From Vicinamibacterales bacterium (GTDB lineage Bacteria; Acidobacteriota; Vicinamibacteria; Vicinamibacterales; SCN-69-37), in NCBI GenBank assembly GCA_035519535.1, contig DATIWF010000029.1:21611-85610 (forward strand): a stretch of DNA of 64,000 bases, given 5' to 3'. A program made the translations under genes and the position numbers. Under the pieces are notes generated by a model. The model did not search any database and was not told where the DNA came from. It saw nothing but the letters and a program-made list of their open reading frames with translations. Position 1 is the first letter of the stretch; each line of letters begins with the position of its first letter. Positions 4,831 through 55,934 of the stretch are shown piece by piece.

Positions 4831-6159
4831 ATGAGTGAAGGAGCGACCGACACCGCGCCGTCGCAACGCGTGCTCGGTCTGCCCGCGGCGGTTTCGCTCG
4901 TCGTCGGCAGCATGATCGGGTCGGGCGTGTTCCTGCTGCCGGCGTCGCTCGCCCGTTTCGGCGGCGTCGCCCTGCTCGGGTGGATCGTGTCGGCGCTGGG
5001 CGCGACCGTGTTGGCGGTGGTGTTCGCCCGGCTGTCGCGCATCGATCCGGCGGCGGGCGGCCCGTACGCCTACACGCGCCATGCGTTCGGCGACCTCGCC
5101 GGGTTTCTGATCGCGTGGGGCTACTGGATCTCGATCTGGACTGCCGACGCGGCGCTGTCGGTGGCGTTCGTCGGCTACCTCAGCCCCTTCATTCCGACGA
5201 TCGTCGCGCAGCCGCCGCTTGCCGCGGCGCTGGCGGTGGCGACCGTCTGGGTGCTGACGATCGTGAATATCCGGGGCGTGCGCACGGCCGGGCGCGTCCA
5301 GGTCGTGACGACGGTGCTCAAACTGCTGCCGCTCGTGGCGATCGCGATCTGCGGCGTGCTGTTCTTCGATGCGCGGCACTTCGCGATCGCCGACACGAGT
5401 CCACGCGCCGTCGGCCAGGGGCTCATCGCGACGACGACGCTGACGATGTTCGCGTTGATTGGGCTCGAAGCGGCCACGGTTCCCGCGACGGTCGTGAAGG
5501 ATCCCGACCGCACGATCCCGCGCGCCACGGTCATCGGAACGCTCATCGCGGCGGGCATTTACATCCTCAGCACGATCGGCGTCATGAGTCTGGTCGAGCC
5601 GGCGTCGTTGATGAGATCCACGGCGCCGTTCGCGGACGCGGCGCGCGCCGTGATGGGCGACCGGGCGGCGGCGCTCGTGGCGCTCGGCGCCTCGATCTCG
5701 TGCTTCGGCGCGCTCAACGGCTGGATCCTGATCGTCGGCCAGCTGCCGGTCGCGCTGGTCGCCGACGGTCTCTGGCCGTCGGCGTTCGGGCGGATGTCGC
5801 GCCGCGGCACGCCCGCGTTCGGCATGGTCGTCGCCGCCGTGCTGACGACGGCGCTGATCGCCATGAACTACTCGAAGAGCCTCGTGGATCTGTTCACCTT
5901 CATCATCCTGCTGGCGACGCTCGCGGTGCTCATTCCGTACGCCTTCTGCGCGCTCGCGGGCCTGCTCATCCTCGGGCGGCGAGGCGAGCGCCCGTCGGCG
6001 CGCGAGGTGACGCTCGCGCTGATTGCGTTCGTCTTCTCGTTCGCGGCGATCATCGGCGCCGGCGCCAACACGGTCTTCTGGGGATTCATGCTGCTGCTCG
6101 CGGGCCTGCCCGTCTACGTGTGGGTGGTTCGCGAGCGCGTGCGCGGCGGACGGTCGTGA
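4831..6159 (+). CDS. APC-family amino-acid permease/antiporter
   Basis: A 442-aa polytopic membrane protein. The N-terminal GSMIGSGVFLLP motif is typical of amino-acid/polyamine/organocation transporters. Confidence 0.8.
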   Translation: MSEGATDTAPSQRVLGLPAAVSLVVGSMIGSGVFLLPASLARFGGVALLGWIVSALGATVLAVVFARLSRIDPAAGGPYAYTRHAFGDLAGFLIAWGYWISIWTADAALSVAFVGYLSPFIPTIVAQPPLAAALAVATVWVLTIVNIRGVRTAGRVQVVTTVLKLLPLVAIAICGVLFFDARHFAIADTSPRAVGQGLIATTTLTMFALIGLEAATVPATVVKDPDRTIPRATVIGTLIAAGIYILSTIGVMSLVEPASLMRSTAPFADAARAVMGDRAAALVALGASISCFGALNGWILIVGQLPVALVADGLWPSAFGRMSRRGTPAFGMVVAAVLTTALIAMNYSKSLVDLFTFIILLATLAVLIPYAFCALAGLLILGRRGERPSAREVTLALIAFVFSFAAIIGAGANTVFWGFMLLLAGLPVYVWVVRERVRGGRS

Positions 6160-28383: not shown

Positions 28384-28962
28384 ATGGAACACCACTACAC
28401 GCCCAAGCCGGGCTGGATCGAAGTCATCACGGGCAGCATGTTCAGCGGCAAGAGCGAGGAGCTGATCCGGCGGCTGCGCCGCGCGCAGATCGCGCGCCAG
28501 CGGGTGCAGATCTTCAAGCCCGCGATCGACAACCGGTACAGCAACGACGAGATCGTCTCGCACAGCGAGATGAAGATTCCGTCGGTCAACGTCGCGACCT
28601 CCGCGGACCTGCTGGCGAGGGTGCTGCGGGACACGGAAGTCGTCGGGATCGACGAGGGGCAGTTCTTCGACGCCGAGCTGCCCGCGGTCTGCACGCTCCT
28701 GGCCAATCAGGGGCAGCGCGTCATCGTCGCGGGCCTGGACCAGGATTATCTCGGCAAGCCCTTCGAGCCGATGCCGCAGCTGCTGGCGATTGCCGAGTAC
28801 ATCACCAAGACGCTGGCGATCTGCATGGTGTGCGGCGGGCCGGCCAATCACACCCAGCGGCTGGTGGCCTCGAAGGAGCGGGTGCTCGTCGGCGCCTCAG
28901 GCACGTACGAGGCGCGCTGCCGGCACTGTTTCGATCCAACGCTCTCCATCGATAATCGGTAA
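28384..28962 (+). CDS. tdk: Thymidine kinase
   Basis: P-loop [14 protein letters not shown] and C-terminal zinc Cys pairs (CMVCG...CRHC). Confidence 0.9.
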
Positions 28963-28981
28963 TCGGCAATCGGACAATCGA
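28954..28981 (+). repeat. Tandem heptamers AATCGGT AATCGGC AATCGGA CAATCGA (left arm of composite element)
   Basis: Overlaps the last tdk codons and the stop codon. It is the reverse complement of the array at 29258..29286. Confidence 0.85.
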
Positions 28982-28984
28982 AGA

Positions 28985-29248
28985 GCATCGATGAAGGGCT
29001 ATCGCCATCGATGATCGAGCATCGCAACCCATCGTGTGATCGTCGATCGATGCCGGTGGTCGATCATCGATGGCAAGGGTCGATCATCGATACCGATGGT
29101 CGTTCATCGATGGCAATGGTCGATCATCGATACCGATGGTCGTTCACCGATGGCGATGGTCGATCATCGATGGCGATGATCGTTCATCGATGGCGATGGT
29201 CGTTCATCGATGTCGATGGTCGTTCATCGATGTCGATGATCGATCAGC
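28985..29248 (+). repeat. 20-bp tandem array (consensus about CGWTCATCGATGGCGATGGT), about 13 units, 10 well conserved from 29041
   Basis: The sequence is in register every 20 nt from 29041 to 29240. Every unit carries ATCGAT/TCGATG and many carry GATC. There are no unique spacers between units. Confidence 0.95.
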
Positions 29249-29257
29249 GTTGCCCTT

Positions 29258-29286
29258 CGATTGCCCGATTGCCGATTGCCGATCAT
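29258..29286 (+). repeat. Tandem heptamers CGATTGC(C) CGATTGC CGATTGC CGATCAT (right arm, inverted)
   Basis: Reverse complement of the left-arm GCAATCG-type units. It abuts or overlaps the stop of the minus-strand gene at 29283. Confidence 0.85.
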
Positions 29287-30065
29287 CGATGAGAAGCGGC
29301 GATCCACTGAATGAGGCCCTGGCCGCCGACGGCCATGGGATCGCCGAGCCAGTCGGGCGGGGTGAGCCAGACGAAGGCAAGAATCACGGCCACCCAGACG
29401 TCGTACGCGAGCGTGGCGCGCTCGTCGGTCCAGTAGAACGCTCGCACGAAGAGGCCGGCGAGGCCGCGCGGCTGCGGCTGCGGCCGGCGGTTCAGCTCGA
29501 GATAGGTGTAGTAGATGCGATCGACGACGGTCACGACCGAGAGGACGCCGATCACCCACATGACGGCGGCCATGCGGTTGGTGAAGGCGCCGATCATGAA
29601 GAGCACGATCCGCTCGGGACGCTCCATGAACCCGACCTTGCATTTTGGCAGGAGCGATTCCGCCCGCGCGCGCGTGTAGCTCGTCATCGTCGCGAACACC
29701 ATCGCGATCGACGTGATGAGGACGTAGTCCGTCCGGCCGAGCGACGAGTAGAGGCAGATCAAGCCGACCGAGAGCGCGAGATCGGAAAAGCGGTCGATGA
29801 CCGAGTCCCAGAAGCCGCCGAAGCTGCTGATCTTGCCGGTCTCGGTCGCGACCTTGCCGTCGATGAAATCGAAGATGTTCGCGACGACCATGATGACGCC
29901 GGCGGTGAGGAAGCTGCCCATCGAGAGCGCCCAGCCCGCCGCGATGTTGATGAGGACGCCGGTGAACGTGAGAAGATTCGGATGGATCCGGAGGCGCACG
30001 CACGCGGCGATGATGAGCCGCAGTGGGTAGTTGAATACCTGGCCGATGAAGCCCGTGAAGGTCAC
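29283..30065 (-). CDS. CDP-alcohol phosphatidyltransferase family protein
   Basis: DFIDGKVATETGKISSFGGFWDSVIDRFSD matches the D-x2-D-G-x2-A-R...G-x3-D-x3-D signature. Polytopic membrane protein. Confidence 0.85.
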   Translation of the reverse strand: MTFTGFIGQVFNYPLRLIIAACVRLRIHPNLLTFTGVLINIAAGWALSMGSFLTAGVIMVVANIFDFIDGKVATETGKISSFGGFWDSVIDRFSDLALSVGLICLYSSLGRTDYVLITSIAMVFATMTSYTRARAESLLPKCKVGFMERPERIVLFMIGAFTNRMAAVMWVIGVLSVVTVVDRIYYTYLELNRRPQPQPRGLAGLFVRAFYWTDERATLAYDVWVAVILAFVWLTPPDWLGDPMAVGGQGLIQWIAASHR

Positions 30066-32018: not shown

Positions 32019-32071
32019 GGAAGGCAGAAGGCAGAAGGCAGAGGGCAGAAGGCAGAAAGCAGAAGGCAAAG
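32019..32071 (+). repeat. Tandem heptamer array (GGCAGAR-type, about 7 units)
   Basis: GGCAGAA GGCAGAA GGCAGAG GGCAGAA GGCAGAA AGCAGAA GGCAAAG, then GGAGG and the GTG at 32082. It starts 1-2 nt after the uvrC TGA. Confidence 0.95.
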
Positions 32072-32081
32072 GAGGCGCAAC

Positions 32082-38999: not shown

Positions 39000-39231
39000 C
39001 AGGTCGGGTACGTCGGGTACGTCGGGTACGTCAGGTACGTCAGGTGCCAGGAATGAACTGACGCTGGCCAACCTTCCTCACCTGGAAGAAAGCGCCGAAT
39101 GGAGAAGGAAAGCTGACCAGCGTCAGCTCGTTCCTCGTACCCGACGTACCTGACGTACCCGACGTACCTCACGTACCCGACGTACCTGACGTACCCGACG
39201 TACCTGACGTACCCGACGTACCGACGACCGA
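39000..39231 (+). repeat. Composite palindromic element: (GTCRGGTAC)x5, inner inverted repeat, about 49-bp core, inverted (TACCYGACG)x10
   Basis: Left 9-mer array at 39003-39047. The inner inverted repeat 39047-39067 pairs with 39117-39137 (18 of 21 complementary). Right inverted 9-mer array at 39138-39226. The element fills the entire 232-nt gap between two convergent stop codons. Confidence 0.95.
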
Positions 39232-41988
39232 CTAGACCTTGATCTTGTACGCCTCCGCCACCGGTCTGAGCGGCCGATCGAACCACATCGGCCGCCGCGT
39301 GCCGTCGGGCCCGGGCGCCGGGCGCGTCTTCGTCATCCACTCCTGATAGATCCGGAACGACTCGTTCGTGTCGACGACGACGTCGCCGTAGCGGTCGTCG
39401 GCCGAGGCCTTCTCGAGCGTGACGCGCTGGTGCCAGCAGTGCATGCCGCTCACGGGATCCGGCTGCACCGGAAACGTCAGGTTCTGGTGCACGCCGATCT
39501 CGCTCCACCAGACGCGGCCACTGTCCGGGTCCTTGCTCGAAAACGGCTTGACGCCGTGCACCTGGCGCATCTTGTAGCGCCCCTCGCCGTCGGGGACGAT
39601 GCGCACGAGCGATGACGCGGCGCGCGCGCCGCCCTGATCTTCGTTGAGCCGCCAGCGCCCGAGGTGGTGCGACATGCCGACGACGCCCGGGCGGATGCCC
39701 TCGGTGACCCATGCGCGCGTGACGAAGTAGCCGATCGCCGTGTTGACCTTGACGAGATCGCCGGCCGCGATGCCGAGGTTCGTCGCGTCCTCGGTCGCGA
39801 TCCACAGCGGGTTGTTGTGCGAGATCTCGTACAGCCACTTGACGGGCGCCCGGGTGTGGATGAGCGTCGGCAGCCGGAAGTTCGGCAGCAGGTCGAATTC
39901 GTTCGCGGCGCGGTTGAGGTCGCGCCAGTAGACCTGCCCGGGCACGTAGCGCGGGATCGCGTGCTCGGGCCAGCCCCAGGCCGCGAGTGTCGGGGAGTAG
40001 AACTCGAGCTTGCGCGACGGCGTGTTGAAACCGACGCGCGGGATGCCGTCGATGACGACGGCGATCGGCGTGCCGTCCTTTTCGACGAGATTCGTCCGGT
40101 CGTTGGTCTTCGTGCCTTTCATCGCGGTCGCGGCGAGCGACTGCTCGTGCGCTTTGCTGTACGCCTCGTCGTCCACCTTGAAGACCGCGTAGCGGCGCAT
40201 GTACTGGAGCGGCGAAAGCCCTTCCTTCTCCGCGGCCTCCGGCAGCCCGGGCACCGAGTGCTCGAAAATCCAGCCGTAGTACTCGTCGAGCGTGATCATC
40301 TCGCCGGGGCGCGTCGGCGACTCGAAGAACTTCCGGATGCCGAGCGACCCGTCGGGGTCGATCTTCCAGGAGAGCGCGATCCAGAACTCCGCTTCCTCCC
40401 AGACTTCGCCCGGGTTCGCTTCGTACGTGCGATCGACCGCCTTGCCCTTCTTTTCGAGCGCGACGCGCTTCACGGGCTGCCGGAACCCCAGCCAGCGGCC
40501 CGCGTGCGTTTCCTGGCTCATGAGATCGTGCCGCTCGGTGCCGAGGCCCATTGGCAGCACGTAGTCGGCGAACCACGCGGTCTCGCTCCAGATGGGCGTC
40601 AGTGCGACGTGCAGGCCGATCTTCGACTCGTCCTTCAGCACCTCCATCCACGTGAAGCCGTCGGGGTTGGTCCAGAGCGGGTTGTAGACGCGCGTGAAAT
40701 ACGTGTCGATGCGGCCGCGCCCTTCCTTGAGGAAGTGCGGCAGCAGGAAGCTCATCTCGAAGAAGGCGAGCGGGAACTCCTTCGGAAACAGCAGCTCGTT
40801 CCAGTAGGCGGGTGGCGGTGGGGGATTCGGGTGCTTCGGCACGAACTTGTTCGTGACGTGCAGGTTCACGCCGCCGGGCTCGCCCACGGCGCCCATGAGG
40901 ACGACCAGGAAGTAGAGGCACCGCGTAATCTGCCAGCCCCAGAGGTGGCCGGACGCCGCCGCGCGCCAGCTGTGCGTCGAAAACGCCGTGCCCGCCGCGG
41001 CCACGGCCTCGGCGGCCTCGATCACCCTCTCGGCCGGCACGCCCGTTTCGATCTCCGCGTACTCCGGCGTGAACACCTCGTAATCCTGCTTCAGCGCGTC
41101 CTCGAAGGCGTCGAACGTGCGCGGGAGGTCCGGCCAGCACGCATCGAGATACGCCTCCCAGTTCACCCAGCGGCGCACGAACTCGCGGTTGTACTTCTTG
41201 TGGTCGATCAGATACCGCGCGATCGCCAGGAGCAGCGCCGCCTCGGTGCCCGGCTGCGCCGGCAGCCAGAGGTTGGCCTTCGCCGACGTGTTCGAGAGGC
41301 GGGGATCGATCACGATCAGCTTCGCGCCGTGCGACTGGCCCTCGATGATGCGCTGCGCGTGCGGGTTGAAGTAGTGCCCGGACTCCAGATGTGACGACAG
41401 CAGGAGGATCGTCTTTGCGTTGGCGTGGTCCGGCGAGGGCCGATCCGCGCCCGTCCACAGGAAATGCCCGAGGCGCGCCGACGAAGAGCAGACGTTCGTG
41501 TGGCTGTTGTGGCCGTCGAGACCCCAGCACTGCAGCACGCGGTTGACGTAGCCGTCCTCGCCTGGCCGCCCGACGTGGTACATCACCTCGTGCCGGCGGT
41601 CCTCCTGAATCGCCTTGCGAATCCGGCCGCCGAGGTCGTCGAGCACCTCGTCCCAGGTCACGCGCGTCCAGCCGCCGCCGCCGCGCGCGCCATTGCGCTT
41701 GAGCGGGTAGAGAATGCGATCGGGATCCTCGAGCTGATTGGGCGTGACGACGCCCTTCGCGCACGTGCGGCCGCGCGACCCCGGGTGCACCGGGTTGCCT
41801 TCGACCTTGCGGACCTCGAGCGTGTCCTTGTCGACGTACGTCAGGATTCCGCACGCCGACTCGCAGTTGAAACAGATGCTCGGGATGATCCAGTACCGCC
41901 GCCGGTCTTTCTTCGGCCAGCTCGTCGACTCGAAATCGACGTAGTTGTCCCACTTGGACGGATCGGGGTGTTTGCTGAACTCAGCCAT
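39232..41988 (-). CDS. Molybdopterin (bis-MGD) oxidoreductase catalytic subunit with no Tat signal
   Basis: 918 aa. N-terminal FeS Cys cluster CFNCESACG...C(AKG). It shows collinear features of the DMSO-reductase superfamily. No twin-arginine leader is visible. Confidence 0.8.
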   Translation of the reverse strand: MAEFSKHPDPSKWDNYVDFESTSWPKKDRRRYWIIPSICFNCESACGILTYVDKDTLEVRKVEGNPVHPGSRGRTCAKGVVTPNQLEDPDRILYPLKRNGARGGGGWTRVTWDEVLDDLGGRIRKAIQEDRRHEVMYHVGRPGEDGYVNRVLQCWGLDGHNSHTNVCSSSARLGHFLWTGADRPSPDHANAKTILLLSSHLESGHYFNPHAQRIIEGQSHGAKLIVIDPRLSNTSAKANLWLPAQPGTEAALLLAIARYLIDHKKYNREFVRRWVNWEAYLDACWPDLPRTFDAFEDALKQDYEVFTPEYAEIETGVPAERVIEAAEAVAAAGTAFSTHSWRAAASGHLWGWQITRCLYFLVVLMGAVGEPGGVNLHVTNKFVPKHPNPPPPPAYWNELLFPKEFPLAFFEMSFLLPHFLKEGRGRIDTYFTRVYNPLWTNPDGFTWMEVLKDESKIGLHVALTPIWSETAWFADYVLPMGLGTERHDLMSQETHAGRWLGFRQPVKRVALEKKGKAVDRTYEANPGEVWEEAEFWIALSWKIDPDGSLGIRKFFESPTRPGEMITLDEYYGWIFEHSVPGLPEAAEKEGLSPLQYMRRYAVFKVDDEAYSKAHEQSLAATAMKGTKTNDRTNLVEKDGTPIAVVIDGIPRVGFNTPSRKLEFYSPTLAAWGWPEHAIPRYVPGQVYWRDLNRAANEFDLLPNFRLPTLIHTRAPVKWLYEISHNNPLWIATEDATNLGIAAGDLVKVNTAIGYFVTRAWVTEGIRPGVVGMSHHLGRWRLNEDQGGARAASSLVRIVPDGEGRYKMRQVHGVKPFSSKDPDSGRVWWSEIGVHQNLTFPVQPDPVSGMHCWHQRVTLEKASADDRYGDVVVDTNESFRIYQEWMTKTRPAPGPDGTRRPMWFDRPLRPVAEAYKIKV

Positions 41989-42030
41989 TCAATAACTCAA
42001 TACACTCAATAACTCAATCACTCAATAACC
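41989..42030 (-). repeat. AT-rich tandem 8-9-mer array (GAGTKATT)x5 forming the whole spacer upstream of the Mo-subunit ATG
   Basis: The plus strand reads TC AATAACTC AATACACTC AATAACTC AATCACTC AATAACC. This is exactly the 42 nt between the FeS/NrfD stop (42031) and the ATG (41988). Confidence 0.9.
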
Positions 42031-43563: not shown

Positions 43564-46500
43564 CTATAACGCAAACATGCCGATTGTTCGCCGGCGGTCG
43601 GCCTCGGGCACGAGCGGAAAGCCCGAGACGATGTGCTCGAACATCGCCGCGTCAAGCCGGTACAGCCGCGCGACGAGCGCCTGCAGCGCGGCGTGGGCGA
43701 GCGGCGAGGCCGGTCGGCGTCGCAGACGACGCGACAGCGCGACAATCCGGCGTTGGTCGTCGTCGCCCGTCCACCGCGGCACCGGCAAGTCCTCGACGAG
43801 GCTCGTCGTCAGATGTCCGCCCATCAGCATCCGCACGAGGGCGTTGAGCACGTAGGAGTTGAACAGGCCGCACAGAAAGTCCTGCTGGTCGGCCGGGATC
43901 GGTGTGCGCAGGCAGAAGAGCGTGTGGGTCGTGACGACGTGAGCGGGCACGATGGCGGCGATGAGCGACTGCCGGTTGGCGACCGCCGAGACGTCGCGAT
44001 ACGCGAGCCGCGCGACGTCGAATCGGCCATGCGGGAGGCGCCGCCGCGCTTCGGCCGGCGCGATCCGCGAAGACGACGCCGACGTGTCGACGCTGAACGG
44101 TCGAAGATGCTTGCCCTCGATGACGGGCAGGCCCTGGCTGCCGATCGCGTCGCGGTCCTCGGTGGCGTTGAGCTCTCGCCCGAAGCTGACGCCCCAACCG
44201 CCGGGGTGGCCGAGTTGTGGGCCCATCGACGACAGGTGCTCGAGGATGTCGAGGTCCCGCGGCGACCGCGCGTCCGGAATCCGGCGCGTCGTGCCACCAA
44301 ATGCGGCAAGGCCCGCGGGCGTCAGACGAATCGGATACGCGGACGCCGCGGGATCGTCGCAGGCCGGAAGGTCGTCGATCTCCGCGGCTGTCCGGACGCC
44401 GAACCGCGCCCGCACTTCGTGTGTCGCGCCGCCGGTTCTGGCCACGAGGACCAGGAAGCGCACGCCGCGGTGAATCGGGAAGAGCGCGTCCGCGTTGTCG
44501 AGGCCGACGACAGTCTCGAGGGTCGAGCGGTCGAGCAGCCGCGCGCGCAGCGCCGCCGCGCCATCGTCAACCGCGAGCCCCCACGGCAGAATCAGTCCCA
44601 CGCGGCCGCCCGGCCGGGCCAGCGACAGTGCCCGCTCGAGGAACGGCTGATAGAGATTGACGTGGCCGTGGTCGCAGGACGGGTAGAGGCCGGAGTCGCG
44701 GATGAAGCGAACGAACGACGCCGGGAGAAACGACGCCGGGATTATTTTTCCCGAGGTCCCGGGAAAAATATTCCCGGCGTCGTTCCTCCCGGCGTCGTTT
44801 CTCAGCATCTCCCACGGCGGGTTGCCGAGGACGGCGTCGAAGCCCGCGCGCGGTCGCGGGTTGCCGGCCGCATCGTAGAACACATCGGCGAACTCGAGCG
44901 GCCAGTGGAAGAAGCCGTGGGTCCGGGCGAGATCGCGCGCTTGCGTCTGCCACCTTGCGAGATCGGCGGCGCCGAGGGTGGCGTCGTTCCGCAGCAGGGC
45001 GTCGAACGCCGCCCGGATTTCGGCCGGAGCCGGAGGCCGACCCGGCCAGAACCAGCGGGCGCACCAGAGGTCGGCCGCCTGCCGCCACCGTCGGAGCGGC
45101 GAATCGTCGCCCGCGAGCCGCGCCCAAATCGCTTCCTTCGCGCGAACATCGTCGACCGTATCGTCGCGGCGCGCGCCGAGGTCGAGGAGCGGACGCGCCG
45201 CGCGGCTCATGGCGTCCTCGAGGCGGCCGGCGTCGAGGTTCAGGAGCGGCAGATCCGCGGTCCCGCGCCGGCGCATCGCCAGCCGGCGCAGATCGTCAGG
45301 CGACGCGCCGATCAGGCTGTTGCCGCTACGCAGCCGGTGGTCGAGAAACCCGAGCGGCTTCCCGCGTGCCAGCGTCGTCAGCCACAGCGACAGGCGCGCG
45401 AGCTGGACCGCGACGGGATTCGCGTCCACGCCGGCGAGGCACCGCTCGGCGACTTGTCGTCGCAGGTTGGCGTGCTCGCGCTCATCCAGATCGGCCTCAG
45501 CGCAACGTCCTTCGGCGATGAGCGCCCGCGCGCACGCGGCCGCGAGGTAGCGGCACGCCGCAACGAGAAACGCGCCGCTGCCCATCGCGGGATCGACGAT
45601 CCGCAGGGACAGGATGTCGTCGGCGCTGGCGCCGGCAACGAGCGGCGCCAGCGTGCGTCTGACGAGAAAATCCGCGAGCGGCTGCGGCGTGTAGAACGTG
45701 GCGCTCTGTTTGCGGCGCGCGCTGTGGGCTGATCCGGCCGGTCGCGGCGGCCCGGGCCTGCCGGCGACGACCGACGAAGGATCGAGATCGAGAACACGCT
45801 CGTAGACCGCGCCGAGCTGTTCGACGCCGAGATCGGCGTAATTGACGCCCTCGATCCCGGCATCGCCCCGCCGCGTGCCCAGGGCCAGGAGCGCGTGCTG
45901 CGCCGCGGCGTCGCGCATCGTGCTGCGGCGCGTCGGACGGGACACCGGGCGGCCGGCTTCGAGCGCAGGCGCCGACGCGCGCGCGAACAGCCGGCCGTTG
46001 AACGGCCGCACGATCAAGTCGCCTGTCCGCCCGCCGAGACGTGACAGCCGCGACACGGCGGCCAGTCCGTCCCAGAGCCCGCCGGCGCGATCGCGATCGA
46101 GCGCGTCGCGGCAGAATCCGCCGACGGTGTAGGCGCCGCCATAGACCGGATGCGCGCGCGGCACGAGGTCGCGCGACTCCGCGAAAAGCAGGAAGAGCAC
46201 GCGATAGACGAGCGTCAGCGACTGGTCGAACGCATCCGGTGCCGGCCGGAGCACGCCACCGAACGCGTGAAGCGCTTCGCCGACGCCCGCCTGGAGATCC
46301 GAACGCACACGATCCTGGAAACCCGCTGCGGCCGCAAGGAGCGCGTCGAGGCGAGACGCCGGTGACGCGTCATTGACCGAAGGCTCCGGTTCGAACGCGC
46401 CCGAGTGCGCGAGTGTCCAGAACGGCGCGAAGCCCGGCTGCGCCAGAACGTCCGGAAATGTGAAGTCGACGCTGCGCCGCGCCGCGTGGCCGCGCGCATC

Positions 46501-46929
46501 CACGAGAGACAGAAACGGCGCGCCGAGAACGAAGCACCATTCGGCGCCGACCGCGCGCGATGCCGCGACGACGTCCCGCCAGGCGCCCGACGGCCGATGA
46601 GCCCAGGGCGTGACGAGGAGACCGACGGGCACGCGCCTGGGCGTGTCGAGCCGGGCCGACGCCTGGGTGCGATCGAAGCGCGCCGCCGAAGCCCGAAAGC
46701 CGAGCATCGCGAAGAGCGGCATCGCGACCTCGTCGAACAACGCGCGCAGGCCGGTGGCCGGGCCGCATGTGGCGGCGACGCGCTGCCACCACCGCTCGAG
46801 CTGACGCCGCCGTCGTTCGACGTCGCGTTCGTCGCCGCGAGGTCCCGAACGCTCAAACACCCGGGTCGCGAGGTACTGGCCGGGGAACAGCGAGCCGCCG
46901 ACGCCGGGCAGGCGGTTCACGGTCGCCAC
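43564..46929 (-). CDS. Eco57I-like (type IIG/DrmMI/PglX-like) N6-adenine DNA methyltransferase, 1121 aa
   Basis: SAM motif I IVDPAMGSGAFLVAA, catalytic motif IV VLGNPPWE, and a C-terminal FNSYVLNALVR...LPVP tail typical of this family. The N-terminal region of about 400 aa has unknown function. Confidence 0.8.
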   Translation of the reverse strand: MATVNRLPGVGGSLFPGQYLATRVFERSGPRGDERDVERRRRQLERWWQRVAATCGPATGLRALFDEVAMPLFAMLGFRASAARFDRTQASARLDTPRRVPVGLLVTPWAHRPSGAWRDVVAASRAVGAEWCFVLGAPFLSLVDARGHAARRSVDFTFPDVLAQPGFAPFWTLAHSGAFEPEPSVNDASPASRLDALLAAAAGFQDRVRSDLQAGVGEALHAFGGVLRPAPDAFDQSLTLVYRVLFLLFAESRDLVPRAHPVYGGAYTVGGFCRDALDRDRAGGLWDGLAAVSRLSRLGGRTGDLIVRPFNGRLFARASAPALEAGRPVSRPTRRSTMRDAAAQHALLALGTRRGDAGIEGVNYADLGVEQLGAVYERVLDLDPSSVVAGRPGPPRPAGSAHSARRKQSATFYTPQPLADFLVRRTLAPLVAGASADDILSLRIVDPAMGSGAFLVAACRYLAAACARALIAEGRCAEADLDEREHANLRRQVAERCLAGVDANPVAVQLARLSLWLTTLARGKPLGFLDHRLRSGNSLIGASPDDLRRLAMRRRGTADLPLLNLDAGRLEDAMSRAARPLLDLGARRDDTVDDVRAKEAIWARLAGDDSPLRRWRQAADLWCARWFWPGRPPAPAEIRAAFDALLRNDATLGAADLARWQTQARDLARTHGFFHWPLEFADVFYDAAGNPRPRAGFDAVLGNPPWEMLRNDAGRNDAGNIFPGTSGKIIPASFLPASFVRFIRDSGLYPSCDHGHVNLYQPFLERALSLARPGGRVGLILPWGLAVDDGAAALRARLLDRSTLETVVGLDNADALFPIHRGVRFLVLVARTGGATHEVRARFGVRTAAEIDDLPACDDPAASAYPIRLTPAGLAAFGGTTRRIPDARSPRDLDILEHLSSMGPQLGHPGGWGVSFGRELNATEDRDAIGSQGLPVIEGKHLRPFSVDTSASSSRIAPAEARRRLPHGRFDVARLAYRDVSAVANRQSLIAAIVPAHVVTTHTLFCLRTPIPADQQDFLCGLFNSYVLNALVRMLMGGHLTTSLVEDLPVPRWTGDDDQRRIVALSRRLRRRPASPLAHAALQALVARLYRLDAAMFEHIVSGFPLVPEADRRRTIGMFAL
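44713..44800 (-). repeat. Palindromic element inside the methyltransferase CDS (in frame)
   Basis: AACGACGCCGGGA occurs twice (44714-44726, 44729-44741). The AT-rich core is TTATTTTTCCCGAGGTCCCGGGAAAAATAT. The inverted unit TCCCGGCGTCGTT occurs twice (44772-44784, 44787-44799). The element encodes RNDAGRNDAGNIFPGTSGKIIPASFLPASF. Confidence 0.85.
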
Positions 46930-49322
46930 CCGAGCGCGACGACGAGCGACGGGCGCCCGATCTCAACGTGTGCGCTCGCCTCGAGGTCTGCGATACGGGC
47001 GTTGGCGTCGCGCTGAATCGCCTCGACAACCTCGCGTCGCTGTTCGAGCCAGCGCCGCCCGCGCCAGTCGAACAAGCCGGGCTGCGCTTCCGCGACGCCG
47101 TGCGCGTCGACGAGCCATGCGGCGAGCGCGCGTTCCCGTGCCGCCGCCCGGTTCGCGTTCGCCGCCAGCAGCCGCGCCAGACGACGCGCCCTCGGCTGGA
47201 GCGCGCGGGCCGCCTCCCGCCGCGCGTGCGCGGCAATCGTGGGCGCCTCGCGTGCGCTCGCATGCGCCAACCGGCACGAGACGCCGACGATATGCCGCTC
47301 GACCATCGTCCCGGCGCCGTCGATCAGCGGCACCGCAAAGATGAGCAGCATGTCTTCGGCGAGCGCGCGAAGAACGACGAGTCGATCGACGTGCGCCCAC
47401 AGCGGTCTGGCGGCATCTTCATCCGGGCCGCGCCAGTGGCGCTGCAGCGCGCGACCCCGGAGGAGGCGAGCCGCTGCGCCACGCGCCGGGCGACTCCAGC
47501 GCGTCGAGCGCTGCCACGGCGGCTCGGTCGTCGATTCCTCGCCCATGGGCGCGGACAGGAATACTGACGCTCGAACAGCGGCTGCACGGACGATCGACGC
47601 GCATCCGAGGTCGTATCCGGTCGACCGCGCGACGCCGAGGACGCGTCGCGCCAGACGCATCAGCACGGGCGCTTCGGCGTCGTGGTCAGCCACGACCAGC
47701 GAGACGTGGACGCGGCGCGTCTGGCCGATGCGATCGACGCGTCCAGCGCGCTGTTCGAGGCGCGCCGGATTCCAGGGCAGATCGAGGCTGACGACGCATC
47801 GCGTGCGCGACTGCAGATTGAGTCCCAGGCTGGCGACGTCCGTGGCCAGCAGCACCGTCGTGGCGCCGTCGAGAAACCGCGTGAGCTCGGTGCGGCGCTC
47901 GCCGGGCGAGAGGCCGCCGTGCAGGCACGACGTCGCGACGCGCCCGTCGAGCCGGCGCCGCAGCACGTCGAGCGAGTCGCGGAACTCCGTGAAGACGACG
48001 ATCGGCTCGCGCGCTCGAGCGACGAACGCCAGGACGCTCGCGGCCTTGCTCTCGTTGCGACGCGCCGCTTCGGCGAGCGCGAGGACGCGTTTGAGCCACG
48101 CGCGCTCCCTTCGGCCGTCGAGGCCGACGTCCGCCGTGAGACCGGCAGCCTCCTCGGCCGTCAGGTCATCCTGGTCATCGAACGGCAGGGAGCACTGCGC
48201 CGGCGAGGCCGGCAGCGGCGCCTCGCACCGCTCGACCCAGGCCAGCCGGCGCCGCAGCGATTGCGCCAGCGCGCTCATCGTGGACAGCGCGCGCTTTCGG
48301 AAGATCGACAGCAGCAGCAGCGCGGCATCGCGTCGGCCGGCCGCCGCGACGCGAAGCACGGCGCGCTCGAACTGGGTGAGCGCGTCGAGCAGGGCCAGCT
48401 CGGACGCGCCCAGCTGCACGCGCCGCCAGCGGACGCGGCGCGTCTGGCCGGCGAACAGATCGCGGCGCGAGCGGCGGAAGATGAGCATGTCGTCCGGTGC
48501 ACCCGGCAGGCGGCCGAGGTTCAGCAGCCGCTGAAATCGCCGTTCGTCGCCGTCGTGCGGCGTCGCGGTGAGCAGCAGGACCGCGCGTGCCCCCGCCGCG
48601 ATCGCGCGACACGCGTCGTGACGATCGGATGCGCCGCACGCCGTGTGGGCCTCGTCGACGACGACCAGATCCCACGGACACGGCGGCATCGCGTCGAGCA
48701 CATGCGCCTGTTTCACGTAGTCGAGCGAGGCGAGCCACACGCCGGCACGACGCCACGGACTGTCGGCGGATGCGATCTCACGCGCGCGGGCGTCGAGCGT
48801 CTCGCGGTCCGCGGAGAGGCAATCGACGCCGAAGCGGCCGCGAAGCTCGTCCTGCCATTGGTCCGCCAGCGACGCGGGAACCAGGACGAGGATGCGCGCC
48901 GCGATCCGGCGCCGCAGGACCTCGGTGATCGCGAGGCCAGCCTGAATCGTCTTGCCGAGCCCGACCTCGTCGGCGACGAGCACGCGTCGGGCGCCGTGCT
49001 GAAGCGCCAATGCCGGCTCCAGCTGATGGGGCAGGATCTCCACACGGGCCTCGCGCGCCGACGCCAGTGTCCGCAACCCGAACGTGCCGCCCGCCACGCC
49101 AGCGACCCGGGCAACGGCATGGTTGGCGGACGCCCGCCGCGGGCGTCGGTCGGGCGTCGCGGCGATCGGTCGATCGAACGGCGCGAGAAACGTGCGCCGG
49201 CCGGCGCCTGGCGCGGAGACCTCGAGCCGTGTGATCCCGTCCTCGCGTGCGATCCGATCGAGCCGCCAGCGCCGCTGGCGAATCCACACGTGGTCGCCGA
49301 CGTTCGGTTGCGCGGTGTGCAC
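46917..49322 (-). CDS. SNF2-family (DEAD/DEAH-like) helicase/translocase, 801 aa
   Basis: Motif I ADEVGLGKTIQAG, motif II VVVDEAH, motif III LLTATPH, motif VI DLPWNPARLEQRAGRVDRIGQ. Its 3' end overlaps the methyltransferase start by 13 nt. Confidence 0.85.
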   Translation of the reverse strand: MHTAQPNVGDHVWIRQRRWRLDRIAREDGITRLEVSAPGAGRRTFLAPFDRPIAATPDRRPRRASANHAVARVAGVAGGTFGLRTLASAREARVEILPHQLEPALALQHGARRVLVADEVGLGKTIQAGLAITEVLRRRIAARILVLVPASLADQWQDELRGRFGVDCLSADRETLDARAREIASADSPWRRAGVWLASLDYVKQAHVLDAMPPCPWDLVVVDEAHTACGASDRHDACRAIAAGARAVLLLTATPHDGDERRFQRLLNLGRLPGAPDDMLIFRRSRRDLFAGQTRRVRWRRVQLGASELALLDALTQFERAVLRVAAAGRRDAALLLLSIFRKRALSTMSALAQSLRRRLAWVERCEAPLPASPAQCSLPFDDQDDLTAEEAAGLTADVGLDGRRERAWLKRVLALAEAARRNESKAASVLAFVARAREPIVVFTEFRDSLDVLRRRLDGRVATSCLHGGLSPGERRTELTRFLDGATTVLLATDVASLGLNLQSRTRCVVSLDLPWNPARLEQRAGRVDRIGQTRRVHVSLVVADHDAEAPVLMRLARRVLGVARSTGYDLGCASIVRAAAVRASVFLSAPMGEESTTEPPWQRSTRWSRPARGAAARLLRGRALQRHWRGPDEDAARPLWAHVDRLVVLRALAEDMLLIFAVPLIDGAGTMVERHIVGVSCRLAHASAREAPTIAAHARREAARALQPRARRLARLLAANANRAAARERALAAWLVDAHGVAEAQPGLFDWRGRRWLEQRREVVEAIQRDANARIADLEASAHVEIGRPSLVVALGWRP

Positions 49323-55139: not shown

Positions 55140-55850
55140 ATGCAGCGGGCAATCGTGACAGGTGGAACGCGTGGAATCGGGTTGGCTGTCGCGCGGGCGA
55201 TTCTGGCGCAGGACGGCCGCGTGATGATCACGGGCCGCACGCAGGCGGGCGTCGATGCGGCCGTGCGATCCCTCGCGCCGGCTTCGTCCGCCTCGTCGCG
55301 GGCTGCGGGCGCGGCCGTGGACGTGCGGGATCGCTCGGCGGTCGAGGCACTGGTCGCCGACACGGTCAAGCGCTTCGGCGGACTCGACGTGCTCGTCAAC
55401 AACGCGGGCGTCGGCGCGATGGTGGAGGTCGCTTCGATGTCCGACGACGACTGGGATCGGACGATCGCGACGAACCTGACCGGGGTCTTCTACTGCACCC
55501 GCGCCGCGATTCCCGCGATGAAACAGTCTGGCGGCGGATGGATCATCAACATCGCGAGCCTCGCCGGACGCAATTACTTTCCCCGCGGCGCCGCGTACTG
55601 CGCGTCGAAGGCGGGCCTTGTCGCGTTCAGCGAGTCGCTGATGCAGGAAGTGCGCTACGACGGCATCCGCGTGAGCGTCGTGATGCCCGGTTCGGTCGCG
55701 ACGACGTTCGGGGGCGAGACGCTCGGCGCGGAGGACGCCTGGAAGCTCGCGCCCGACGACATCGCCGAAGTCATCGTCGATCTCCTGCGACATCCGGCGC
55801 GCAGCCTGCCCAGCCGGATCGAGATCCGGCCGTCGCAGCCGCGCAGGTAG
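55140..55850 (+). CDS. Short-chain dehydrogenase/reductase (SDR)
   Basis: The ATG at 55140 has TATTCT 6 nt upstream and no Shine-Dalgarno sequence. Motifs are TGGTRGIG, NNAG and YCASKAG (YxxxK). Confidence 0.85.
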   Translation: MQRAIVTGGTRGIGLAVARAILAQDGRVMITGRTQAGVDAAVRSLAPASSASSRAAGAAVDVRDRSAVEALVADTVKRFGGLDVLVNNAGVGAMVEVASMSDDDWDRTIATNLTGVFYCTRAAIPAMKQSGGGWIINIASLAGRNYFPRGAAYCASKAGLVAFSESLMQEVRYDGIRVSVVMPGSVATTFGGETLGAEDAWKLAPDDIAEVIVDLLRHPARSLPSRIEIRPSQPRR

Positions 55851-55919
55851 AAAAATAAGCCGGGTATATTTTTGCGGAAACCGTAATATGTTCCGCAAAA
55901 ATATACCCGGCTTATTTTT
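55851..55919. terminator. Perfect 29-bp AT-rich inverted repeat (bidirectional intrinsic terminator candidate)
   Basis: AAAAATAAGCCGGGTATATTTTTGCGGAA, an 11-nt loop, then TTCCGCAAAAATATACCCGGCTTATTTTT. It starts at the base after the SDR TAG and lies between convergent genes. Confidence 0.8.
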
Positions 55920-55934
55920 CTCAGCCCCGTCCCC

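Follow-up and report, generated by a model that had tools for sequence, protein, structure and literature searches.

The window analysed here is a stretch of 64,000 nucleotides (nt) of contig DATIWF010000029.1 (assembly GCA_035519535.1, positions 21,611 to 85,610 of the forward strand) from a Vicinamibacterales bacterium of the phylum Acidobacteriota. Its subject is a hairpin element that lies in frame within a gene for an N6-adenine DNA methyltransferase, a few codons after the catalytic NPPW motif. The element was pointed out in an initial annotation made from the sequence alone, and its nature, its origin and its consequence for the host protein are considered below. The gene and the parts of the element are as follows.

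43564-46929, minus strand: host gene, gamma-class N6-adenine DNA methyltransferase, Eco57I/DrmMI-like, 1121 residues counted from GTG
44812-44823, minus strand: codons of the catalytic motif IV, NPPW, whose residues are invariant in alignment A2
44787-44805, minus strand: codons of L-R-N-D-A-G directly after NPPWEM, containing the 13-mer at 44787-44799 and matching a conserved motif
44714-44800, no strand assigned: hairpin element of 87 nt, 29 codons on the minus strand, delimited by fold, repeat layout and a match to covariance model R1 at 44722-44791
44742-44771, no strand assigned: core of the element, TTATTTTTCCCG, spacer AGGTC, then CCGGGAAAAATAT, with the sole stem mismatch at 44771

Hairpin element inside the methyltransferase gene

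The element consists of two direct copies of the 13-mer AACGACGCCGGGA (44714-44726 and 44729-44741), an AT-rich core palindrome (GGGATTATTTTTCCCG / CGGGAAAAATATTCCC) interrupted by the one mismatch at 44771, and two inverted copies, in which the reverse complement of the 13-mer is read at 44772-44784 and 44787-44799. No other exact copy of the 13-mer exists in the window, where 15 matches with at most two mismatches are found as compared with 6.5 +/- 2.7 in shuffled sequences. The DNA of the element folds with -53.5 kcal/mol (z = -10.2; none of 200 shuffles is as stable) and its mRNA strand with -95.2 kcal/mol (z = -12.1). The in-frame palindromic segment with duplicated 13-mers and a one-mismatch core that the initial annotation had placed after NPPW is thus confirmed and is far beyond chance. 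The peptide given for it is also the one encoded, since the minus-strand open reading frame (ORF) 43564-46929 is translated across the element as NPPWEML-RNDAGRNDAGNIFPGTSGKIIPASFLPASF-VRFIRD. The conserved codons on either side (44697-44713 and 44800-44816; PWEMLR and VRFIRD) are partly complementary, and inverted-repeat arms of 57 nt (82%) are obtained when they are included.

The window has a G+C content of about 69%, and the hexamer ATTTTT occurs in it six times, every one within the hairpin or within a palindrome at 55849-55921. The motif CCGGGNNTNTTTTT is likewise confined to the four arms of the hairpin and of this 55.8-kb palindrome. The identity of 14 of 18 positions between the core and one arm of the latter (55851-55919), noted earlier, is correct.

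A resident repeat family of Acidobacteriota

One genome per GTDB species was scanned with the pattern CCGGGNNTNTTTTT-N(6-36)-AAAAANANNCCCGG, derived from the window's own two copies. At least 96 loci were found, many of them from the same Acidobacteriota metagenome-assembled genomes (MAGs). Among the matches listed, at least about 30 belong to a Solibacteraceae MAG, at least about 11 to Vicinamibacterales BC2.43 and others to several further MAGs including the genome encoding homologue P0008, and variants are found in Omnitrophota, Planctomycetota and one Pseudomonadota MAG. An arm of the family is made of an A-tract, N4, CCGGG, N4 and a T-tract, and is followed by a loop of about 9-30 nt and the inverted arm, the consensus being gAAAA(c)GACn-CCGGG-nGTC-TTTTT-loop-AAAAA-GACn-CCCGG-nGTC(g)TTTTc, in which the flanks outside the search pattern extend the palindrome. 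The methyltransferase element has this arm form of A-tract, N4, CCGGG, N4 and T5, as it reads GAAACGACG-CCGGG-ATTA-TTTTT ... AAAAA-TATT-CCCGG-CGTCGTTTC. The 13-mer of the window agrees with a subfamily aaacgaca...tgtcgttt, of which locus L023 (gggaaacgacaCCGGG...CCCGGtgtcgtttcc) is an example.

Covariance model R1 was built from 49 copies, all from other genomes. Searched against the window and five orthologous loci (162 kb in total), it matches three places only, 55846-55924 (59.5 bits, E ~2e-14), 44722-44791 (54.3 bits, E ~8e-13) and 5285-5355 of orthologous locus L003 (40.6 bits), so that the hairpin and the 55.8-kb palindrome are its only matches in the window. Standard pairs fill 92.7% of the stem cells in contrast to about 50% when partners are slid, and 10 pairs are changed on both sides. 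Orthologous copies in two species, with flanks 81-90% identical, differ from each other by paired substitutions. The methyltransferase hairpin is a copy of a resident Acidobacteriota family of short palindromic repeats, comparable to repetitive extragenic palindromes (REP), miniature inverted-repeat transposable elements (MITE) and Rickettsia palindromic elements (RPE).

Several further features of the family were observed. Copies at orthologous positions in two Acidobacteriota species are represented by the locus pairs L014/L016, L015/L064 and L026/L041. The four bases flanking CCGGG follow a genome-specific dialect (GACT/AGTC versus GACG/TGTC), which suggests concerted evolution or co-evolution with a trans-acting factor; the dialect CCGGG-WWTATTTTT is common to the hairpin and the 55.8-kb copy. 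Pairs of copies 340-410 nt apart with the same downstream flank are found in L058 (5110-5158 and 5448-5496) and in L037 (1038-1086 and 1451-1500), and the loops of the L058 pair are mutual reverse complements, as if the loop had been flipped between the arms. A function as a DNA uptake sequence was considered and rejected, because only 5 of 83 half-sites lie outside paired hairpins and most of these are diverged hairpins. In the window, no Rfam family scores as high as its gathering threshold, canonical copies show only sub-threshold similarity to miRNA and CopA hairpin models, and no description of a CCGGG hairpin family was found in the literature searched for Acidobacteria palindromic repeats, for REP and REP-associated tyrosine transposases (RAYT), and for the sequence string.

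Usual location at gene ends

In GC-rich genomes, a coding-like gene ends close to 49 of 71 copies (69%), its stop codon lying no more than 40 nt, and mostly 2-12 nt, from the CCGGG core; 15 of the 71 have a stop codon on both sides. The second copy in the window is of this kind.

55846-55924, no strand assigned: second family copy (R1, 59.5 bits) between the convergent genes for a short-chain dehydrogenase and a pyridoxal phosphate (PLP)-dependent enzyme

This copy supplies the stop codon of the dehydrogenase gene; L004 has no element at the orthologous site, where the gap between the genes is only 10 nt. With their A-tract, stem and T-tract, canonical copies have the layout of bidirectional intrinsic terminators, and termination of transcription is their putative role. 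The methyltransferase copy departs from the typical 3'-end location (stop codon within about 12 nt) by being intragenic, a location that is not needed for membership of the family by sequence. Compared with canonical copies, it has a degenerate outer T-tract, of which most is lost. A bidirectional terminator is expected to have a 5' A-tract and a 3' T-tract of at least 4-5 residues beside its stem-loop, whereas on the mRNA strand the stem of this copy is followed by CGUUCGCUUC; a simple terminator scan detects in the element a small alternative stem followed by CGTCGTTTCT.

In-frame copies in other genes and loci

Stop-to-stop ORFs were tried as a test for intragenic copies and discarded, since at about 69% G+C this test is too permissive (37 of 100 copies appeared to be spanned), and a filter based on codon-position GC was used instead. 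Three intragenic candidates besides the window copy passed this filter (L048, L099 and L100), and the latter two were confirmed. In L100 (4252-4314), a copy lies in frame in MutS2 just before domain V, with an insert reading ...RNRVSFSSENGEKKKPGF..., and in L099 (430-492) a copy lies in frame in the Kae1-like C-terminal domain of HypF, with an insert reading ...ITPGVFLEDSVLQKDTRRYF....

When about 86 methyltransferase loci were searched with R1, four copies were found in or near the gene, in the window, L003, L107 and L113. The L003 copy is in the same loop of the methyltransferase, but has CCGGG in a different frame, an AGAGGAC-type loop and belongs to a different subfamily; it starts after LRKE. 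The differences in frame and subfamily indicate an independent event. In L107, the copy is in frame in another variable loop of the orthologous methyltransferase, near residue 177, and in L113 it directly follows the stop codon of Smr. Three of the four copies at methyltransferase loci are therefore inside coding sequence, as against a family of which about 96% is extragenic. This suggests that the methyltransferase is an exceptionally tolerant or preferred target, although few copies are involved and the finding itself was the reason for choosing the window.

The loop after NPPW and the size of the insert

Among 118 full-length homologues, no other region of the protein varies in length as much as the loop after NPPWEM, which has 0 to 115 residues. 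In three homologues, which read NPPWEMVPLVRFIRDSG, the loop is nearly nil, and the 22-residue loop of an 80%-identical orthologue is unrelated to that of the host protein, which answers in the affirmative the question, raised in the initial annotation, of whether the added residues are a lineage-specific indel. In the structure model, residues 704-734 have a predicted local distance difference test (pLDDT) score below 50, whereas the strand (694-699, with NPPW at its end) and the helix (735-743) that bound the loop are confidently placed. On both sides of the insert, codon-position GC is undisturbed and is that of a coding gene.

One part of the loop is shared more widely. In most homologues down to 39% identity, NPPWE[MV] is followed by [LVI]-R-x-D-[AST]-G, encoded by non-palindromic DNA in which the native codons for R-x-D-[AST]-G read, for example, CGC GCC GAC GCC GGC. 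In more distant homologues, the loop is fixed at 22 residues, VRGDSG....R..RR..A..LT. The first RNDAG in the coding sense is thus probably the native R-x-D-[AST]-G motif rather than inserted DNA. As LRNDAG is likely to be native, one of the four 13-mers would be host sequence, and the true insert would amount to about 72-75 nt. The insertion of 88 nt proposed initially is accordingly a palindrome of 87 nt in which one outer 13-mer probably consists of native codons. For this first motif, homologues do share the protein sequence without the palindrome, which is in part the pattern that had been named as evidence against an insertion.

Other repeats were observed at the same site. In many orthologues, the loop after NPPW is encoded by an 8-nt tandem repeat, which in L005 (12161-12221) is (GAACCCCG) x7.6 with a 24-nt super-period encoding EPRNPGTS repeats. 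Similar sequence is present in L001, L002 and L004, and within the ortholog loci of 11-23 kb the 8-nt motif is restricted to this loop. The unit is not a multiple of three, so that slippage by a single unit would shift the frame. In L002 (12150-12290; homologues P0003 and P0035), the loop has two direct repeats of about 57 nt encoding ...PRQARGALSPSKGGTSEPRP..., which may be a different family of translated repeats at the same site.

Strain comparison and possible effects of the hairpin

The same element and gene are present in two independent assemblies from other samples, L182 (ENA) and L183 (JGI), which are 99.7% and 99.9% identical to the window. The frame is open and of equal length in all three strains, and the proteins differ only inside the element, apart from the start, which is read as V or M. 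Between L182 and the window, 34 substitutions are seen over 12,355 positions, four of them within the 87 nt (binomial P ~1e-4); between L183 and the window there are 4 over 4,493, one of them in the element. The stem contains no mismatch in L183, one in the window (44771, where the plus strand has T in the window and A in both other strains) and three in L182, and no change is compensated. Since these single-nucleotide polymorphisms (SNPs) break pairing without compensation while the frame stays open in all three strains, the element is real and retained, and drifts without selection on pairing. Point mutations are now eroding the methyltransferase copy.

Some library and assembly artefacts can yield perfect palindromes. 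An origin of the hairpin as such an artefact, for example a fold-back chimera, is nevertheless effectively refuted by its presence in three assemblies from different archives and samples with point substitutions only, and by the preserved reading frame.

A hypermutable loop might serve as a contingency locus, in which the methyltransferase is switched on and off by indels mediated by repeats or by the hairpin. The great variation of loop length among homologues, the repeat of orthologues with a unit that is not a multiple of three ((GAACCCCG)7.6 in L005) and the enrichment of SNPs in the element are in line with this idea, but the three strains are identical in length with an open frame, all 118 full-length homologues on which loop length was measured read through the loop, and frameshifted alleles were not observed. 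Such switching is therefore very improbable.

It is slightly less improbable, though still hard to favour, that the hairpin has been co-opted as a regulator that tunes the output of the methyltransferase relative to the upstream, translationally coupled SNF2 gene; in mRNA or DNA form, it could block ribosomes, be a site for RNase III or act as a partial terminator. At -95 kcal/mol the stem in the mRNA is very stable, and it has been kept in all three strains, hairpin copies recur in the loop in another lineage, and the small stem followed by CGTCGTTTCT was flagged by the terminator scan. On the other hand, the hairpin is conserved neither in the 80%-identical orthologue nor in most others, strain SNPs disrupt its pairing uncompensated, and the canonical T-tract is degenerate in this copy.

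Origin and probable tolerance of the methyltransferase copy

The reading favoured here, with a probability of about 0.72, is that the methyltransferase hairpin is a tolerated in-frame copy of the repeat family, a passenger in a flexible loop between motifs IV and V. One copy would have come to lie between motif IV (NPPW) and motif V, presumably by insertion. It would have survived because the added length was a multiple of three, the frame used had no stop codon and the loop was flexible and tolerant of length, so that the 25-29 added residues would be a passenger peptide. The methyltransferase would most likely still be active. The possibility raised initially, that an insertion next to motif IV abolishes activity, is argued against by the length-variable site, the pLDDT below 50 and the open frame in three strains.

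Several observations weigh against this reading or restrict it. The low pLDDT of the loop may reflect a variable alignment rather than true disorder. The R1 scores of the window copies are partly circular, as the search pattern came from the window, although the flanks, the L003 match and the covariation are independent of it. The units are arranged as b-a-core-b'-a' on either strand, which is not a plain mirror image, and one 13-mer unit coincides with native codons; for these two reasons, the structure as a whole is not accounted for by mere insertion of a canonical element. A source copy with equally doubled arms was not found, this genome being covered by the window only. No direct repeat that could be a target-site duplication flanks the hairpin or the 55.8-kb copy, the latter as compared with the empty L004 site. 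No mobilising enzyme was identified in the loci of up to 8 kb around the copies, for which no transposase survey was made. One outer unit is probably composed of native codons that happen to match the family arm GACGCCGGG, and local extension by template switching would be a plausible addition to account for the doubled outer 15-nt unit.

Some of these points would be accommodated by a wholly local origin, in which the palindrome was built from native codons by template switching or quasi-palindrome correction during replication and came to resemble the family by convergence or through gene conversion at a later time. The native R-x-D-A-G codons are identical to the first unit, the spacers between units are not mirrored and the longest exact pairings are crossed (I2, I3), a target-site duplication is not visible, and the codons for PWEMLR and VRFIRD on either side show partial complementarity (57-nt arms, 82%). 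However, in a window of about 69% G+C, the AT-rich core has a design that recurs in other genomes in at least 70 copies. It reaches 54 bits with a model from which the hairpin itself is excluded, and has the dialect CCGGG-WWTATTTTT in common with the 55.8-kb copy. A local origin is thus decidedly unlikely, whereas local extension of an inserted copy is possible and compatible with the favoured reading. None of the four rival explanations, that is, local origin, regulator, contingency locus and artefact, is favoured.

It is also unlikely, though somewhat easier to entertain, that the loop after NPPW is a preferred landing pad and not merely a tolerant site. The idea comes from the R-x-D-A-G codons (GAC GCC GGG), which are identical to the family consensus arm GACGCCGGG, so that copies could home to the site or be templated there. 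If true, it would account for the doubled units as well as for the two independent copies in the loop and the third at another place in the gene, and it would reveal how the family spreads, with repeat DNA repeatedly remodelling a loop beside a catalytic site. Mimicry of the arm as a cause of insertion is unsupported, however, as the L003 copy lies in another frame after LRKE and the empty 55.8-kb site has no CCGGG.

Host methyltransferase, its neighbourhood and other repeats

The host protein (1118 residues if counted from the start of the database entry) matches Eco57I and N6_Mtase in Pfam, and its best PADLOC model is DrmMI (3.7e-82). Motif I (DPAMGSGAF) lies upstream of motif IV (NPPW) and both are invariant in alignment A2, as is typical of the gamma class. 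Sequence search of the PDB gave weak methyltransferase matches only, and therefore the AlphaFold model was compared by Foldseek, in which BrxX/PglX, CamA, M.BseCI and M.TaqI are the closest solved folds. Homologues are numerous, and the few that carry a source name bear the label Vicinamibacterales. The gene immediately upstream overlaps the host gene.

46917-49322, minus strand: SNF2-family helicase gene, DrmD-like (PADLOC DrmD, 2.1e-69), whose stop codon overlaps the methyltransferase start

In six related loci (L001-L005 and L182), the gene order is HU, QueF, Smr, SNF2, methyltransferase, NrfD-like and molybdopterin oxidoreductase. The adjacent overlapping genes with best PADLOC models DrmMI and DrmD resemble DISARM class 1, a likeness that concerns the host gene and not the element. 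They differ from it in lying within a conserved housekeeping order without the DrmA, DrmB and DrmC families nearby, none of the Pfam families of DrmA, DrmB (DUF1998) and DrmC (PLD) being found within about 10 kb in L001-L005. A full DISARM class 1 system was thus rejected on gene content, DrmA/DrmB not being seen beside DrmD/DrmMI and the neighbours being housekeeping genes. From this gene order and these absences, the SNF2/methyltransferase pair looks vertically inherited rather than part of a mobile defence island, and its role across Vicinamibacterales may be a chromosomal one, distinct from classical DISARM defence.

The window contains other repeats outside the family. A palindrome of about 220 nt at 39003-39226 is made of 9-nt tandem repeats, (GTCGGGTAC) x4.8 in one arm and (CGTACCCGA) x10 in the other, and lies between the TAA of a plus-strand ORF (~38998) and the stop codon of the molybdopterin oxidoreductase gene (39232). 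At 28950-29290, ten copies of a 20-nt tandem repeat (ATCGATGGCGATGGTCGATC), rich in CATCGATG palindromes, are flanked by inverted arrays of 7-nt repeats (TAATCGG... / CGATTGC...), the layout again being tandem repeats, a core and inverted tandem repeats, with a different sequence. Neither is matched by R1. The likeness that the initial annotation saw between the element and the intergenic elements therefore holds for the 55.8-kb copy, which is matched by R1, and is one of general layout only for the 28.9-kb and 39.0-kb palindromes. Short tandem arrays are also found at 41978-42029 ((TCAATAAC) x5), at the junction of the molybdopterin oxidoreductase and NrfD-like genes, and at 32020-32072 ((GAAGGCA) x7.7).

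Significance and comparison with known systems

The family now has a searchable model, R1, and is absent from Rfam and from the literature searched; its sequence, its phylum and its association with stop codons appear undescribed. As its copies lie so close to stop codons, the family is a good candidate for a sequence-conserved terminator. For annotation, it is a warning not to take odd low-complexity loops in these proteins, which are translated repeat DNA, for functional motifs, and it marks the segment between motifs IV and V of the methyltransferase as an insertion-tolerant site.

Canonical copies resemble bidirectional intrinsic terminators in their A-tract, long stem and T-tract and in their position at gene ends or between convergent genes. 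The family differs in that its sequence is also conserved, within and between genomes, and in having a T5/A5 block inside the stem, and the methyltransferase copy differs further in lacking most of the outer T-tract. MITEs derive from insertion sequences and have terminal inverted repeats and a target-site duplication; no flanking direct repeat is seen at the hairpin or the 55.8-kb copy.

Palindromic elements that add peptides in frame to genes were reportedly described in Rickettsia by Ogata and co-workers in 2000 as RPE. The likeness of the present family to these elements is one of behaviour only.

Hairpin repeats at gene ends, genome-specific variants and inverted pairs are shared with REP and REPIN sequences mobilised by RAYT. 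A REP is defined as an imperfect palindrome of 20-40 nt that carries, at one of its ends, a GTAG (or CGTC) tetranucleotide tag outside the paired region (PMC3733652). The present family has no unpaired GTAG, and CGTC or TGTC, found in many copies, is inside the stem; in the methyltransferase hairpin, GTAG is absent and GCGTC is present but base-paired in the stem. As in CGTC-class REPs, no dedicated transposase is known.

REPs also occur inside genes (Di Nocera et al., 2013; PMC3733652). Like these intragenic REPs and the RPE, the present family consists of short multi-copy palindromic repeats that are mostly intergenic, with a minority in frame in known genes, and its in-frame copies extend the protein by a peptide at variable sites while the gene is not destroyed. 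The differences lie in its own sequence, with arms that carry A- and T-tracts around an invariant CCGGG, in copies that abut or supply stop codons, and in its host phylum, Acidobacteriota not being included in the survey of intragenic REPs (PMC3733652). With the copies in the methyltransferase, MutS2 and HypF, this major and little-studied soil phylum joins the few lineages in which palindromic repeats are found in frame in conserved genes.

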